Shown here one piece after another: positions 32,160 through 38,876 of a stretch of DNA of 64,000 bases. Both the position numbers and the translations under genes were made by a program. Origin of the DNA: an uncultured Rhodospirillaceae bacterium (GTDB taxonomy: Bacteria; Pseudomonadota; Alphaproteobacteria; JAEULC01); contig CAZLBB010000002.1 of assembly GCA_964557415.1 (NCBI GenBank), forward strand, positions 25,645-89,644, read 5' to 3'. The notes under the pieces were generated by a model. That model was not told the origin of the DNA. It did not search any database and saw only the letters and a list, made by a program, of their open reading frames with translations. Numbering within the stretch: position 1 is the first letter of the stretch; each line of letters opens with the position of its first letter.

Positions 32160-32202
32160 AAAATAGCAGCGATCCGCCCGCAGCGCTGTGACGCGCGACA
32201 CA
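32160..32202 (-). promoter_or_regulatory. Putative class II CRP-type promoter of the TPR-CHAT gene
   Basis: TGTGA-CGCGCG-ACACA at 32187-32202 (9/10 to TGTGA-N6-TCACA); minus-strand TATTTT at 32165-32160 fits -12..-7 for a site centred at -41.5. Confidence 0.6.
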
Positions 32203-32992: not shown

Positions 32993-33865
32993 TCATTGCT
33001 GGAAGAACGCCAGCAGCGCATCGGCGGTCTCGCCCGGCGCTTCCTCGGGCAGGAAATGCCCCGAGTCGACCGCCCGGCCGCGCACGTCATCGGCCCGCCG
33101 GCGCCATTCCGCCAGCACGTCGTAGCGCCGGCCGACGAAGCCCTTCGCGCCCCAGAGTGCCAGCAGCGGCATGGCGAGCTTGCGCCCGAGATCGGCCGCG
33201 TCGTGCGCCAGGTCGATGGTCGCCGCGGCGCGATAGTCCTCGCAGCTGCCGTGGATCGCGGCGGGATCGGAAAAGCAGCGGATGTACTCGGCGCGCGCCT
33301 CGGGCGTGACGGCGGCATCGTCCCGGCCCCAATGGCCGAGCTTGGTGTTGATCCACCAGGCCGGGTCGGCGCCGATCAGCTTCTCCGGCAGGGGCGCCTT
33401 CTGGATCAGGAAGAACCAATGGTAGTAGGCCGTGGCGAACTCCTTGTCGGTGCCCGCATACATCGCATGCGTCGGGCTGATGTCGAGAACGGCAAGCTTC
33501 GCGACCCGCTCGCCGTGATCGAGCGCCAGCCGATGCGCCACCCGCCCGCCGCGGTCGTGACCGGCGAGGCCGAAGCGCCGGAAGCCAAGCGCCTCCATGG
33601 CCTCGATCTGGTCCTTGGCCATGGCGCGCTTGGAATATCCGGCGTGGTCCGGCCCCCCGGGCGGCTTGAAGCTGTCGCCATAGCCGCGCAGATCGGCGCA
33701 GACGACCGTGAAGGTCCGGGCCAGGACCGGCGCCACCTTGTGCCACATGACATGCGTCTGCGGATAGCCGTGCAGCAGCAGAAGCGGCGGTCCGGAGCCA
33801 GCGACGACCAGGTTGATCTCGCCTTCGGCGACCGGGACGCGCCGATGCCGAAATCCCTCGAACAT
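32993..33865 (-). CDS. Haloacetate (probable fluoroacetate) dehalogenase, alpha/beta hydrolase
   Basis: HGYPQT, GHDRGGR nucleophile elbow, LDI, YYHWFF, EDYRA, GHFLPEE. Confidence 0.82.
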   Translation of the reverse strand: MFEGFRHRRVPVAEGEINLVVAGSGPPLLLLHGYPQTHVMWHKVAPVLARTFTVVCADLRGYGDSFKPPGGPDHAGYSKRAMAKDQIEAMEALGFRRFGLAGHDRGGRVAHRLALDHGERVAKLAVLDISPTHAMYAGTDKEFATAYYHWFFLIQKAPLPEKLIGADPAWWINTKLGHWGRDDAAVTPEARAEYIRCFSDPAAIHGSCEDYRAAATIDLAHDAADLGRKLAMPLLALWGAKGFVGRRYDVLAEWRRRADDVRGRAVDSGHFLPEEAPGETADALLAFFQQ

Positions 33866-33978
33866 CCGTCCTCCAAGACCCTTCGCGCTCGCGACCTTAA
33901 CACCCTGGAATCCGGCTCGCCAATCGCCCGGCTGGCGTTATAAAGTCCCGCGAAAGCAGGGGGCCGGAGGCTAGGTCG

Positions 33979-34680
33979 ATGTCGGACGCGGCGGAACGCA
34001 GCCTGAACGGGATTCCGCTGTTCGCGGACATGAAGCCGGAGCAGCGCGCGGCGCTCGAGCAGCAGGCCGTGTTCCGACGCTACATCGCCGGCGAGCAGAT
34101 CATCGACCGTCAATCCGACAGTCGCGACATGTTCTGCGTCGTGCGCGGCACCGTGCGCGTCGTGATCTACTCGGCTTCCGGACGCGAGGTCAGCTTCGAC
34201 GACATCGACGCCGGCGGCTACTTCGGCGAGCTGGCCTGCCTCGACAGCCGGCCGCGCTCGGCTTCGGTCGTGGCGCTCACCAACACCGTCGTCGCCGCCA
34301 TATCGCCGCCGGTGCTGGAGCGGGCGCTGCTCGAGCACCCGAAGATGGCGCTGATCCTGATGCGCCGCCTCGCCAAGGTGATCCGCCAGTCAACCGACCG
34401 CATCCTCGACCTCAGCACGCTTGGCGCCAACAACCGCGTCTATGCCGAGCTGCTGCGCCTGTCCAAGCCGAACGCCAAGGACATCGGCAGGACCGCGGTG
34501 ATCCGGCCGGTTCCCATTCACGGCGATATCGCCGCGCGCGTGAGCACCACGCGCGAGACGGTCGCCCGCGTGCTGAGCGACCTGTCGAAGAAGCAGCTCG
34601 TGATCAAGGAAGGCACCAGCCTGGTGATCAAGGACATCGACCGGCTGCGCGACATGGTCGAGCAGTTCCGTGGCGACTGA
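33979..34680 (+). CDS. Crp/Fnr family transcriptional regulator (cNMP-binding)
   Basis: FGELACLDSRPRSAS phosphate-binding cassette; HTH recognition helix TTRETVARVL. Confidence 0.9.
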   Translation: MSDAAERSLNGIPLFADMKPEQRAALEQQAVFRRYIAGEQIIDRQSDSRDMFCVVRGTVRVVIYSASGREVSFDDIDAGGYFGELACLDSRPRSASVVALTNTVVAAISPPVLERALLEHPKMALILMRRLAKVIRQSTDRILDLSTLGANNRVYAELLRLSKPNAKDIGRTAVIRPVPIHGDIAARVSTTRETVARVLSDLSKKQLVIKEGTSLVIKDIDRLRDMVEQFRGD

Positions 34681-34703
34681 CCGGCTTGCCGTGGGCCGCG
34701 GGC

Positions 34704-34746
34704 TGTGACGGCCGTCACTGCCAGCCGGGGGGGCCCATGCCATCCT
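34704..34746 (+). promoter_or_regulatory. Putative class II CRP-type promoter
   Basis: TGTGA-CGGCCG-TCACT at 34704-34719 (9/10 consensus; core 34705-34718 is a perfect palindrome); CATCCT at 34741-34746 fits -12..-7; predicted +1 A at 34753. Confidence 0.6.
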
Positions 34747-34752
34747 TGGTCC

Positions 34753-34932
34753 ATCGATGGGGTTTCCTGTCGATGTGAGAACCGGTGGGGCGGCCCGGCC
34801 TATCCTCAGCCAAGGCGTAAGTCGGTCCATCCCATTGGCTCTCCGGACAATCACCCGCGATTGTCCGACCTTTCGAAGCAGCCTCCTAGACGCACTTGGG
34901 AGCCAAGGCAACTTGGCTCCCAATTTTCTTTT
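34753..34932 (+). ncRNA. Candidate structured RNA (sRNA or attenuator/riboswitch leader)
   Basis: 9-bp hairpin 34844-34867, CCTCCT stretch, strong terminal hairpin with U-tract, alternative AGCCAA/TTGGCT pairings; 5' end inferred from promoter geometry; no family recognised. Confidence 0.5.
34896..34932 (+). terminator. Intrinsic terminator
   Basis: TTGGGAGCCAAG-GCAA-CTTGGCTCCCAA perfect 12-bp stem, GNRA loop, then TTTTCTTTT. Confidence 0.85.
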
Positions 34933-34958
34933 GTAACAATGAGTTCAAAGGTGATCCT

Positions 34959-36287
34959 GTGACAACGGTTGCAGTCCGCCCGAACATCGACCTGGCCAGT
35001 GCCGCCGCCGAGGCGGCAGCGCTCTACACCGAAGCCAATCCCAAGAGCCTCCAGCGCCATCACGCCGCGGCCGAAAGCATGCCCGGGGGCAACACCCGGA
35101 CCGTGCTGTTCTTCGCCCCCTATCCGCTCTGCTTCGTGCGCGGCGCGGGAGCCAGGCTCTGGGATGTAGACGGGCACGAATATGTCGATTTCCTGGGCGA
35201 GTACACGGCGGGCCTCTACGGCCACTCGCACCCGGTCATCACCGACGCCATCCGCCGGGCGCTCGACGACGGCATCGCGCTGGGCGGGCATACCCCGCAC
35301 GAGGCCGTGCTGGCCGCCGCCGTCAAGAGCCGCTTCGCGTCGGTCGATCTGATGCGCTTCTGCAATTCGGGCACGGAAGCCAATCTGCTGGCGATATCCG
35401 CCGCGCGGCTGTTCACCAGGCGCGACAAGATCCTGGCCTTTGCCGGCGGCTACCACGGCAGCGTACTGAGCTTCCCGTTCACCGCCCCGCCGGGCGGCAC
35501 GATCAACGTGCCCTTCCCCGTCGTCCTTGCCCCCTACAATGACCTCGCCGCGACCGAGGCGCTCATCGCGGCACACGCCAAGGACCTCGCGGCGATCATC
35601 ATCGAGCCGATGCTCGGGGGCGGCGGCTGCATCCAGGCCGCGCCCGAGTTCCTGGCGGCGCTGCGCCAAGCCTGCGACCGGCACGGGATCGTGCTGATCT
35701 TCGACGAGGTCATGACCTCGCGCCTGTCGCCCGGGGGCTTGCAGCAGCTGCGCGGCATCCGGCCCGATCTCACCAGCTTCGGCAAGTACCTGGGCGGCGG
35801 CTTGCCGACCGGCGCGTTCGGTGGCAGGGCCGACATCATGGAGCGCTTCGACCCGCGCCGGCCGGACGCCGTGGCCCATGCCGGCACGTTCAACAACAAC
35901 GTGCTGACCATGGCCGCCGGTGCCGCCGGCCTCACCCGCGTCTACACGCCCGAGGCGGCCGTGGCGCTCAACCGGTCGGGCGACGCCCTGCGCGAGCGGC
36001 TGAACGAGCTCATCCGGCGCCGCGGCGCCAGGGCCGTGGTCTCGGGCTGCGGCTCGATGATGAACTTCCATCCCGGGATCGACCGGCTGCCGCGGGCCCC
36101 GGCCGACATCGCGAAGATTCCCGGGCCGCTGCGCGACGTCTTCCATTTCGACATGCTGGCGCGCGGCATCCACGTCGCGCGCCGCGGCATGATCAACCTG
36201 TCGCTGCCGATGACCGAGCGGGACTTCGACCGCCTGGCCGGCGCGTTCGACGAGTTCCTGTCGGCGCGGGCTGGGCTCTTGGCCTAG
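34959..36287 (+). CDS. Class III PLP aminotransferase, beta-amino-acid (beta-phenylalanine-type) transaminase-like
   Basis: MPGGNTRTVLFFAPYP, NSGTEAN, FDEVMTSR, SFGKYLGGG (PLP Lys), HAGTFNNN; GTG start. Confidence 0.85.
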   Translation: MTTVAVRPNIDLASAAAEAAALYTEANPKSLQRHHAAAESMPGGNTRTVLFFAPYPLCFVRGAGARLWDVDGHEYVDFLGEYTAGLYGHSHPVITDAIRRALDDGIALGGHTPHEAVLAAAVKSRFASVDLMRFCNSGTEANLLAISAARLFTRRDKILAFAGGYHGSVLSFPFTAPPGGTINVPFPVVLAPYNDLAATEALIAAHAKDLAAIIIEPMLGGGGCIQAAPEFLAALRQACDRHGIVLIFDEVMTSRLSPGGLQQLRGIRPDLTSFGKYLGGGLPTGAFGGRADIMERFDPRRPDAVAHAGTFNNNVLTMAAGAAGLTRVYTPEAAVALNRSGDALRERLNELIRRRGARAVVSGCGSMMNFHPGIDRLPRAPADIAKIPGPLRDVFHFDMLARGIHVARRGMINLSLPMTERDFDRLAGAFDEFLSARAGLLA

Positions 36288-36344
36288 GCTGCCGCTGATC
36301 CAGCCGCCGGCTCTATGGGAGGCGTGCACGGATCGACCCGCGCG

Positions 36345-38876
36345 CTAGCTCCCGTTGGCGCGCAGCTTGTCGGCGCTCGACAGCGCCGCGTCGATCGCGG
36401 CGAGGAACCCCTTCACGTCGATCGGCTTGGTCAGGTAGCGGAAGAAGCCGGCTGCCTGGCCGCGCTTGATATCTAGCGGCATGGCCGCGGCGGTCAGCGC
36501 GATCACCGGGATGTGGCAGGTCTCCGGCATCGCCTTGAGACGCGCCAGGACCTCGTAGCCGTTCATCTCCGGCAGGTTGAGGTCGAGCACGATCACGTCC
36601 GGGCGGTGCGCCACGGCGAGGTCCAGCCCAAGGCTCGGCCTGCTCGCCGACAGCATGACCACCTCGGGAATCGTCGATATCAGGTGCTCCATGAGGCGCA
36701 GGTTGGTCGGGTTGTCCTCGAAGTACAGCAGCGAGTAGCCGCCGGCCAACGCGCGCGCCGCCGCCGTATGTCTCGGCTTGGCCGCAGGCCGCCCGCCGCT
36801 CGATGCGGCGGTCTCCATGGGGATGTCGACCCAGAAGCTGCTGCCCTCTCCGAACTTCGTCTCGTAGCCGAGTTCGCCGTCCATCGCCTCGGCCAGGCGC
36901 TTGCATATCGACAGCCCGATGCCAGCGCCTTCGATTGCGGTGTATTCGGCACCCAGCCGCTTGAACGGCTGGAACAGCTCGGCCTCGCGCTCCTTGGCGA
37001 TGCCAATGCCCGTGTCGCGCACGAGCAGGCGAACGCGTCCGTTCGGCATCTGGGCGGCCGCCACCACGACCGATCCCCCGGGGCGGTTGTACTTGACCGC
37101 ATTGGAGACGAGATTGATCAGGATCTGGCGCAGCCGCAGGTCGTCTGCCCGCACGTCCGGAACCGCATCTGCGTTCCGCACGTCGAGCGCGATGCCCGAC
37201 TTCTGCGCCAGCGCCGACATCGTATTGCGCAGGCTGGCGAACACGTCCGCCACCGCGACGCGCTCGATCGACAGTTTCATCTCCCCGCTCTCGATCCGCG
37301 CGAGATCGAGCACCTCGTTGACGAGAGCCAGCAGGTGGTGTCCGGAGTCGTTGATGTGACGGCTATACTCCAATTGCGACCCGGTCAGGTTCACGGGACG
37401 GTTCAACTCCAGCATTTGCGCGAAGCCGATGATCGCGTTCAAGGGCGTGCGCAGCTCGTGGCTCATGCGCGACAGGAATTCGGACTTCGCCCGGTTCGCC
37501 TTGTCCGCCGCCTCGGTGGCGGCCGCCAGCTGGGCTTCGCGGCGCTTCCGCTCTGTGATGTCGGTATGCGTTATGGCAAGGTACCCGTTCGGCATCGGCG
37601 ACCATTGCACGGCGATCACGGTTCCGTCGCGACGCCGGCGCTCGTAGCGCCTGTGCTCGCCCGATGCCGCGTATTCCAGCCGGTCCGTCACTGCCCGTGC
37701 CGGATCTTCTCCGTCATACTCGCCGCTATCGCGGATGGCACGCAGCAAGTCGTCCAGCGGCGCTCCCTTCGCGATCATTCCGCTCGGGAGGCTGAAGAAC
37801 GACGCCAGCTTGGCGTTCCAGGCCACCAGCCGGCGATCGCGGTCGAACACGGCGACTGCCTGGTCGATGCTGGCGAACACCGATTCGAGCAGGGACGACT
37901 TCTCCGCCGCAGCTTTGGCGAGTTGCTCGCGCCGCCTGACCAACACGAGCAGCAGCCAGGCGCCGAGCCCCGTCGCGGCGACCACCAGCGCCGCCACGGG
38001 CACCGTCACCGAGAGCTGCCGGCGAAAGCCGGCCAGGGTGTCGCCTCGCGAAATCGTCGCGGTGACGACCAACGGATGCCCGGGCACGGCGCCATAGCTG
38101 ATGATCCGGTCGGACCCGTCGAACGCGCTGTTGCCGTGGTAGGTTCCGGACGCGGCGCGTGGGAGATGCTCGCGAAACAGTCTGCCGTCGGCGAACGTCC
38201 GGCCAGCAAGCGATGGAATGTCCGGATTGCGCGCCAGGATCGTGCCGTCCCGGCGCAGCAACGTCACCCTTCCGTCGCCGCCGATATCCAACGAGTGATA
38301 ATAATTCGTGAAGTACTCCAGCGCGACGATCGCGTTGACGATGCCTGCGAAACGGCCTTGCGCATCGTCATAGCGGCGTGAAACGGTGATAATCCAGCTT
38401 CCATCCACGACCGAGCGGATCGGCGATGCGATGTGCATACCGTCGACGGAACGGTTCGCGTGGACGACGAACTGCTCCTGGTCGGCGATGTTGAGCGCGG
38501 CCGGATGGCGAAACTCCGACGAATACAGCCGATTTCCACGTGCATCGGTCCAGCCCAGGCGACGTACGACCGGAGAACCGCCGACGATGCCGCGCAGTAC
38601 GTCGTGAGCGGACGCGTTGCTCTTGAGCGGCTCCGATTCCGTTTCGCGGCGCAGTTCCACCGTCGCCGCAAGCGCGCGCGACACAACCTCGAAGGTGCGC
38701 GCCGTGCTCTCGACAAGCAGGATGCGCACGTTCTGCGCCTCGCGATCGGCACGCGCGAGCGCGCGCTGGTAGCTGTCGTAGGCACCGTAGGTGAGCCAGG
38801 CGAGCACGGCGCCGACAATGAGCGACGCGACTGCGCCAATTGCTCGCGCAGGACTCGGCAGGCCGGTACTCGGCAT
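36345..38876 (-). CDS. Hybrid sensor histidine kinase (periplasmic Cache-like, one PAS-like domain, HisKA, HATPase, receiver)
   Basis: Two TM segments, [42 protein letters not shown] receiver. Confidence 0.92.
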   Translation of the reverse strand: MPSTGLPSPARAIGAVASLIVGAVLAWLTYGAYDSYQRALARADREAQNVRILLVESTARTFEVVSRALAATVELRRETESEPLKSNASAHDVLRGIVGGSPVVRRLGWTDARGNRLYSSEFRHPAALNIADQEQFVVHANRSVDGMHIASPIRSVVDGSWIITVSRRYDDAQGRFAGIVNAIVALEYFTNYYHSLDIGGDGRVTLLRRDGTILARNPDIPSLAGRTFADGRLFREHLPRAASGTYHGNSAFDGSDRIISYGAVPGHPLVVTATISRGDTLAGFRRQLSVTVPVAALVVAATGLGAWLLLVLVRRREQLAKAAAEKSSLLESVFASIDQAVAVFDRDRRLVAWNAKLASFFSLPSGMIAKGAPLDDLLRAIRDSGEYDGEDPARAVTDRLEYAASGEHRRYERRRRDGTVIAVQWSPMPNGYLAITHTDITERKRREAQLAAATEAADKANRAKSEFLSRMSHELRTPLNAIIGFAQMLELNRPVNLTGSQLEYSRHINDSGHHLLALVNEVLDLARIESGEMKLSIERVAVADVFASLRNTMSALAQKSGIALDVRNADAVPDVRADDLRLRQILINLVSNAVKYNRPGGSVVVAAAQMPNGRVRLLVRDTGIGIAKEREAELFQPFKRLGAEYTAIEGAGIGLSICKRLAEAMDGELGYETKFGEGSSFWVDIPMETAASSGGRPAAKPRHTAAARALAGGYSLLYFEDNPTNLRLMEHLISTIPEVVMLSASRPSLGLDLAVAHRPDVIVLDLNLPEMNGYEVLARLKAMPETCHIPVIALTAAAMPLDIKRGQAAGFFRYLTKPIDVKGFLAAIDAALSSADKLRANGS

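Follow-up and report, generated by a model that had tools for sequence, protein, structure and literature searches.

The stretch of DNA analysed here (the window) comprises 64,000 nucleotides (nt) from an uncultured Rhodospirillaceae bacterium (GenBank assembly GCA_964557415.1, contig CAZLBB010000002.1). The element under study lies in a spacer of 278 nt (34681-34958) between a gene encoding a Crp-family regulator, referred to below as crp, and a gene encoding a class-III aminotransferase, all on the + strand. For this spacer, the original prediction had proposed a structured RNA of about 180 nt ending in a terminator, and had read it either as a riboswitch or attenuator for the aminotransferase or as a Crp-induced trans-acting small RNA (sRNA).

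The genes and features of the locus are collected in Table 1. The Pfam domains of the two flanking genes agree with the identities that had been predicted for them. For the Crp-family protein, the best NCBIfam match was CRP with 77 bits, which is below the cut-off of 266, the recognition helix was TRETVAR (RE..R pattern), and the identity across all RNA-bearing loci described below was 82-96%. The GTG start of the aminotransferase begins 26 nt past the end of the T-tract of the intrinsic terminator. Over the region scanned for promoters and terminators (33500-36500), this terminator was the sole terminator-like site, no terminator was found between the crp stop (34680) and 34896, and no promoter-like site was found between the terminator and the aminotransferase start.

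Table 1. Genes, promoter elements and RNA features in and around the spacer (positions in the window)
Feature	Position	Strand	Description
crp-family regulator gene	33979..34680	+	233 amino acids; Pfam cNMP_binding and HTH_Crp_2; candidate activator of the RNA promoter
Crp box	34704..34719	+	TGTGACGGCCGTCACT; 15 of 16 matches to TGTGA-N6-TCACA
Extended -10	34738..34746 (hexamer 34741-34746)	+	TG, c, CATCCT; conserved positions; predicted promoter
Predicted RNA, about 180 nt	34753..34932	+	putative +1 (A34753) to end of U-tract; 5' end placed from promoter geometry
SL1 hairpin	34753..34774	+	6 of 8 pairs kept through double changes across homologues
SL2, long irregular hairpin	34777..34843	+	basal helix with double changes in 6 of 12 pairs
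SL3, 9-base-pair (bp) hairpin	34844..34867	+	CGGACAATC/GATTGTCCG; paired in all cells; 6 of 9 pairs invariant; 1 double change
Invariant 32-nt stretch	34865..34896	+	CCGACCUUUCGAAGCAGCCUCCUAGACGCACU; mostly unpaired; CCUCCU (anti-Shine-Dalgarno, anti-SD) at 34882-34887; presumed seed
Intrinsic terminator	34896..34932	+	12-bp stem TTGGGAGCCAAG-GCAA-CTTGGCTCCCAA followed by UUUUCUUUU; from terminator scan
Class-III aminotransferase gene	34959..36287	+	Pfam Aminotran_3; in-frame GTG start at 34959

Fold and covariation of the spacer RNA

The spacer region is a conserved, structured RNA element. Closer relatives of the aminotransferase (71-96% identity) in metagenome assemblies led to contigs with the order crp, spacer and aminotransferase, and the alignment of these contigs showed a nearly invariant block of about 57 nt, conserved above the level of the flanking coding sequences. 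Seven more loci were obtained with an exact 22-mer from this block scanned over the metagenome collection, and three more RNA loci were present on contigs found through the Crp protein. In total, 12 distinct versions of the RNA were obtained, including that of the window. The covariance model (R1, alignment A4) matches the window at 34752-34932 with 184.6 bits; individual loci are referred to below by L numbers. In the scan of species-representative genomes for the aminotransferase, only relatives of at most 60% identity were found, and the RNA was absent from these by both BLAST and the covariance model. The distant-mode search of the plasmid collection gave no match, and a full-text literature search with strings of the seed sequence returned nothing relevant.

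The fold of 34753-34934 had a z-score of -5.64 and that of 34681-34940 a z-score of -5.88, with none of 200 shuffles equally stable in either case, and each of the 12 homologues, folded alone, gave the same four hairpins (SL1, SL2, SL3 and the terminator), in agreement with the structured RNA of about 180 nt that had been predicted. The covariation check suggested with that prediction, made on the homologous spacers collected here, gave 20 of 49 pairs kept through changes on both sides, with 98.6% of cells forming standard pairs, in alignment A4, which was fitted to the covariance model and hence leans towards it; the result on a MAFFT alignment agrees, where RNAalifold gave 49 pairs, of which 13 show compensatory changes. 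For A4, none of 500 shuffles reached any of the five measures, and sliding the 3' partners gave 1-7 double-change pairs.

The covariation is carried by SL1, SL2 and the terminator, and SL3 is nearly unchanged. In the terminator, six of the nine modelled pairs were kept through double changes; the hairpin has -20 to -28 kcal/mol in every homologue and is followed by 7-9 U in all. The GNRA-capped 12-bp stem (34896-34923, GCAA loop) and the T-tract (TTTTCTTTT, 34924-34932) stand where the original prediction had placed them, 26 nt before the aminotransferase, and the separate 9-bp hairpin that it had described at 34844-34867 is SL3. The loop of SL3 is C-rich, with ACCCGC in the window and UCCCGC or CCCUCGCG in other homologues. 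The 3' strand of SL2 contains TTGGCTC, which pairs with GAGAACCGG in the basal SL2 helix in every homologue, with compensatory changes. The SL2 apex carries CCUAUCCUCAGCCAAGGCGUAAG (34808-34830), which includes AGCCAA. This apex is near-identical in six homologues (window, L081, L094, L095, L097 and L103); in L100 it has diverged, and L082, L098, L085, L086 and L087 have lost it by a clean deletion. The apex thereby resembles an optional module.

The RNA is assigned to the + strand because its conserved G-U pairs and its U-tract fit that strand only. An RNA on the minus strand was ruled out by the same two features, and the covariance model had no significant minus-strand match. Also rejected were a conserved small open reading frame (ORF) or leader peptide (the indels of SL2 are 16-22 nt and not multiples of three, and the ATG in SL1 is not conserved) and an ORF on the minus strand (no start codon follows AGGAGG). 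A small 4-bp hairpin predicted inside the single strand never varies and hence lacks support.

The 32-nt stretch ahead of the terminator stem is identical in all 12 distinct homologues and is unpaired in the centroid fold, including the CCTCCT that had been noticed in the original prediction. Across the same homologue set, crp has 80-90% nucleotide identity and 59-75% identity at third codon positions, and, leaving aside the closest relative of the window, the SL1 and terminator stems share 33-67% identity with those of the window. The 32-nt stretch looks like a base-pairing seed, since unpaired sequence is frozen while the stems change yet keep their pairs. Further CU-rich motifs are present in the SL3 loop (CACCC, CUCCC or CCCCU) and, in seven homologues, in the SL2 apex (AUCCUCAG).

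Crp box, predicted promoter and linkage to crp

The Crp box at 34704-34718 is the sole exact TGTGA-N6-TCAC in the window, and every RNA-bearing locus whose sequence extends far enough upstream has a box at the equivalent position. Downstream of it, 11 aligned homologues all have the T and G of the TG as well as A2 and T6 of the hexamer, and L103 has the same spacing, so that the box and TGn-nAnnnT occur at fixed spacing in 12 of 12. The distance from box to hexamer is without indels (18 nt between box and TG), and the sequence of this spacer varies. A purine seven bases past the hexamer is the first base of SL1 (A34753); with +1 at this base, the box is therefore centred at -41.5. A box centred at -41.5 is the geometry of class II CRP-dependent promoters, as known for Escherichia coli CRP, and the conserved arrangement fits a promoter of this class. 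The protein that binds the box is probably the Crp-family regulator of the gene just upstream. CgrA, a Crp homologue of Rhodospirillum centenum, binds and protects TGTGA-N6-TCACA (PMC4681086).

Two further Crp-type boxes were observed. One lies in the window on the minus strand (TGTGTCGCGCGTCACA, 32187-32202), where it is followed after exactly 18 nt by TG, C and TATTTT (32161-32169), some 70 nt ahead of a gene encoding TPR and CHAT domains, whose ATG lies at about 32081 on the same strand; because of the same layout of 18 nt, TGn and hexamer, it is an internal replicate of the promoter geometry, and it is missing from the equivalent spacer of L087. The other is a TGTGA-N6-TCAC in L104-L106 (2860-2874), 127 nt upstream of the start of crp itself, in crp relatives of 62% identity, which suggests autoregulation of crp.

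Wherever a locus extends into the upstream flank, the RNA is located just downstream of crp. The gene that follows is not constant. The aminotransferase follows, 26-45 nt past the U-tract, in eight of the 12 distinct homologues (window, L081, L082, L085, L086, L087, L098 and L100), and the other four (L094, L095, L097 and L103) are without it. In this second clade, formed by L094/L101, L095, L097, L103 and the 5'-truncated L096, a small ORF lies 67-168 nt downstream of the RNA, with 83-85 amino acids where gene calls exist, a signal-peptide-like start and no NCBIfam match. A conserved GCGCGCTAGACTCC containing the -10-like TAGACT is present between the terminator of the RNA and the small ORF in L094-L097 (L094:3815-3830), and L103 has TAAACT at the corresponding place. 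L103 also has the terminator module (GGGGGCCGGGTAACCGGCCCCCTGTTTTTTG and about 25 nt) in three tandem repeats before the small ORF (L103:3907-4047). Neighbours encoding an amidase, a response regulator and a histidine kinase are common to both clades. Since the RNA always follows crp and the downstream gene differs, it is the regulator, and not the aminotransferase, with which the element travels. The aminotransferase gene seems to have come to lie right behind a terminator that already existed.

The crp orthologues of 58-62% identity (L104-106, L107/108 and L109/110) are without the RNA, and the synteny of DUF502 and crp persists in one of these RNA-less loci. In L104-L106, a PTE-family gene overlaps the crp stop, with no RNA downstream.

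The constant position after crp, with no terminator predicted from the crp stop to 34896, is also what would be expected if the element were only the 3' untranslated region (UTR) and terminator of crp, without a promoter of its own; its structure would then serve the stability, termination or autoregulation of the crp mRNA, and the TGTGA box would be an operator. This explanation is very unlikely, since, in the absence of a promoter, there is little reason for TG and A2/T6 to keep a constant distance from the box across a spacer that varies, the same geometry from box to hexamer recurs upstream of another gene of the window, and a structured stretch of 215 nt with an invariant single strand of 32 nt exceeds what termination needs. 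A complementarity to the start of crp agrees with it in one clade: among the seven aminotransferase-linked homologues examined, six have GGAGGCU, the complement of AGCCUCC in the RNA, in the crp start region (33960-33978 in the window), while L086 reads GGAGGCA and the complementarity is lost in the other clade, which has GGGGUGGG. It hints at feedback on crp, yet it is not conserved. As a conserved target of the RNA, crp was rejected, because the complementarity comprises the SD and two bases only and is found in one clade only.

Competing pairings, probable read-through and proposed action in trans

For the attenuator, the original prediction had drawn three competing segments, in which TTGGCTC (34835-34841, segment 2) would pair with the left arm of the terminator, GAGCCAA (34900-34906, segment 3), and AGCCAA (34808-34813, segment 1) would in turn sequester TTGGCT. 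The element would then be a cis-acting leader of the aminotransferase, with a ligand or protein choosing between the terminator and the TTGGCTC antiterminator. The sequences are present, and AGCCAAGGC does occur twice (34808-34816 and 34901-34909) as had been described. The position of the terminator, which ends 26 nt before the aminotransferase with no promoter detected between them, and the tight spacing in the other linked homologues are in line with such a leader. The pairing of segments 2 and 3 can be drawn in the window with -15.6 kcal/mol, but it is outside the minimum free energy (MFE) fold and is not conserved, with -14.3 kcal/mol in L081, the closest relative of the window, and -4 to -12 kcal/mol elsewhere in shifting registers; the structures with which it competes are stronger (SL2, -24 to -39 kcal/mol; terminator, -20 to -28 kcal/mol).

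On the alignment, the helix of segments 2 and 3 had no pair with double changes, and 468 of 500 shuffles paired at least as well. In register, 89% of cells can pair, compared with 28-69% when the partner is slid, and this is due to G-U wobble, as one strand is rich in U and G and the other in G. The sequestering helix of segments 1 and 2 is likewise outside the MFE fold and without covariation, matching the shuffle expectation, and segment 1 is absent in five of the 12 homologues. When the best upstream partner was sought for the left arm of the terminator, it was no better than the one for shuffled arms, and its position shifts between homologues. As judged from the alignment, the three-segment switch is a feature of the lineage of the window and not of the RNA family. 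With pairings that are not conserved, an unrelated small ORF downstream in four distinct homologues and no conserved leader peptide, the riboswitch or attenuator for the aminotransferase lacks support, and we consider it improbable.

The second reading of the original prediction, a Crp-induced trans-acting sRNA, fits the conserved box and -10, the covarying hairpins, the invariant CCUCCU, the terminator and the linkage to crp. The element is probably a Crp-activated trans-acting anti-SD sRNA of uncultured alphaproteobacteria that resembles CyaR in its working and is unrelated to it. From sequence comparison, we infer transcription, Crp dependence, action in trans and read-through. In the proposed mechanism, the spacer between crp and the aminotransferase would hold a separate RNA gene on the + strand, from 34753 to about 34932. 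Transcription would start from a promoter of class II type, formed by TGTGA-N6-TCAC at -41.5 and the extended -10 (TGn-nAnnnT), when the Crp-family regulator encoded upstream carries its cyclic nucleotide. The transcript is predicted to fold into SL1-SL3, followed by the single-stranded CCUCCU stretch and the strong intrinsic terminator, and its anti-SD motifs would pair in trans with the ribosome-binding regions of target mRNAs, altering their translation or stability. In the clade with the aminotransferase, transcripts that escape termination would also serve as aminotransferase mRNA. The aminotransferase is probably expressed by read-through in this clade, because no promoter fits in 26-45 nt.

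Several points weigh against a trans-acting sRNA with a promoter of its own. The start near 34753, and hence also the value of -41.5, is inferred from a weak -10 hexamer (CATCCT). The same sequence is also the 3' UTR of crp, and the RNA could arise by processing, because no terminator separates the crp stop from the RNA. All homologues come from metagenomes or metagenome-assembled genomes (MAGs) labelled Rhodospirillales or Alphaproteobacteria; MAGs with the RNA include GCA_020846275.1, GCA_964409735.1 and GCA_023266845.1. Target prediction by a duplex scan of the 64-kb window, a stretch too short for this purpose, gave no discrimination in this GC-rich sequence. With 26-45 nt and no room for a promoter, the element of the aminotransferase clade can formally be described as a terminator-bearing 5' leader as well. 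In addition, the MFE folds of the read-through transcripts pair CCUCCU with the SD of the aminotransferase in four (L082, L085, L087 and L100) of the seven aminotransferase-linked homologues folded, which would be a role in cis.

The last two points are the basis of a further explanation, a locus with two outputs, in which most transcripts would terminate as sRNA and a part would be read through, with CCUCCU masking the aminotransferase SD in cis. It overlaps with the trans-acting sRNA and adds to it a cis function in one clade. A correlation between the SL3 loop and the SD was also observed, the loop being CACCC where the SD is GGUGA (window, 34853 and 34947-34955; L081) and CUCCC where the SD is GGGAG or GGAG (L082, L085, L087 and L100). 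This correlation is a single correlated change, i.e., one evolutionary event, and could be chance. Any anti-SD pairs with any SD, so that the CCUCCU pairing is expected by composition; it is not predicted in the window, L081 and L086, and the terminators are strong, with 7-9 U. The two-output locus is therefore rather unlikely. In its fullest form, which we likewise regard as doubtful, one Crp/cyclic-nucleotide signal would give either the trans-acting sRNA, with possible feedback on crp, or SD-masked read-through into the aminotransferase; termination would be regulated by a further factor, and the aminotransferase would have been inserted behind an existing sRNA terminator.

Relation to known RNA families

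At the gathering thresholds of Rfam 15, no match was found in the window or in 10 homologous loci, and the earlier statement that the RNA matches no known class is thus borne out, as no family reaches its gathering score. The best sub-threshold match in the window was BjrC68 (RF02353; 34835-34931, 24.2 bits, E 4e-4, gathering threshold 39), and BjrC68 reached 21.1 bits in L103, also below its threshold of 39. MmgR (RF00519) reached 29.3 bits in L103 compared with the 41 required, mostly through the terminator, and had no match in the window at E<=10. BjrC68, MmgR and Hrs13, the last at a Niveispirillum locus, were rejected as the identity of the RNA, as their matches are sub-threshold and driven by the terminator. 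For BjrC68, an sRNA of Bradyrhizobiaceae, the likeness consists of a hairpin and a terminator with a GCAA loop and is essentially that of the terminator only, whereas the first hairpin would contain five non-canonical pairs and an insertion of 26 nt stands at a place to which the model gives 6 nt.

The trans-acting anti-SD sRNA preferred here can be compared with several known systems. CyaR is a CRP-dependent sRNA with a conserved seed, a variable 5' part and an intrinsic terminator, and it pairs with the SD of ompX (PMC11795201). The RNA of the window resembles CyaR (RyeE, RF00112) in its conserved Crp box, invariant CCUCCU, variable 5' hairpins and terminator. It differs in having no match in sequence or to the Rfam model, in its three 5' hairpins, in being encoded right after the regulator gene and in its occurrence in alphaproteobacterial MAGs. 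CyaR is about half its length. The resemblance is one of function and not of descent.

Alphaproteobacterial trans-acting sRNAs typically carry CU-rich anti-SD motifs that are unpaired, and pairing with ribosome-binding regions through such motifs is described for AbcR, NfeR1 and MmgR (PMC7143759). The RNA of the window shares with AbcR1/2 (alpha-r15), NfeR1 (alpha-r14) and MmgR (alpha-r8, RF00519 'suhB') the combination of stem-loops and unpaired CU-rich anti-SD motifs, which here are AUCCUCAG in the SL2 apex, CUCCC or CACCC in the SL3 loop and CCUCCU in the single strand. It differs from them in size, hairpin layout and predicted regulator, and none of them is matched at the Rfam threshold.

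The arrangement with crp was compared with that of sRNAs encoded at the 3' end of genes. The DapZ-type sRNAs of enterobacteria have their own promoter and a terminator common with the upstream gene. Likewise, the RNA of the window uses the terminator of the upstream crp, with a dedicated promoter predicted just upstream of it; in contrast, this promoter lies after the stop codon and not within the coding sequence, and the upstream gene encodes the presumed activator. With terminator/antiterminator riboswitches, the RNA shares, in one clade, a structured leader with a terminator shortly before a gene, but it lacks a conserved alternative pairing and a conserved downstream gene. Taken with these comparisons, the RNA most likely represents a new family within a well-known kind, the base-pairing sRNAs, and there is no curated Rfam family for it.

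In free-living alphaproteobacteria, little is known of what Crp and cyclic-nucleotide signalling act on, and we know of no sRNA arm of a Crp regulon in these bacteria. The RNA is likely a fixed partner of the Crp-family regulator, because it is tied to the crp gene and its seed is unchanged while its neighbours diverged. It would thus be an entry point to the post-transcriptional part of a Crp-family regulon in a lineage represented by metagenomes only and, if the reading as a trans-acting sRNA is true, a convergent counterpart of the enterobacterial CyaR. The locus would also illustrate how an enzyme gene can fall under a regulator by landing behind an sRNA terminator, and for annotation, a new RNA family could be founded on the alignment together with the covariance model. 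The value of the result comes from comparative evidence that is clean, from an RNA and a Crp-family regulator that stay together in an uncultured lineage and from an enzyme gene that seems to have been captured by an sRNA transcription unit; to a specialist, it is plausible rather than surprising.

A different sRNA-like element was observed downstream of crp in L107 (3800-3910), a contig with the Crp of Niveispirillum irakense (58% identical). It combines a -10-like TATATA with the motifs CCUCCU and CUCCC and with a strong terminator, has only weak Rfam matches (Hrs13, 26 bits; MmgR, 24 bits) and no match to R1 and may be a positional analogue of the RNA of the window.

In L089-L093, relatives of the aminotransferase (68-69% identity) are found without crp and without the RNA, in an operon of GntR, the beta-keto acid cleavage enzyme BKACE and the aminotransferase. 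These operons adjoin genes of ABC or TRAP transporters, and this context hints at the metabolic role of the aminotransferase.

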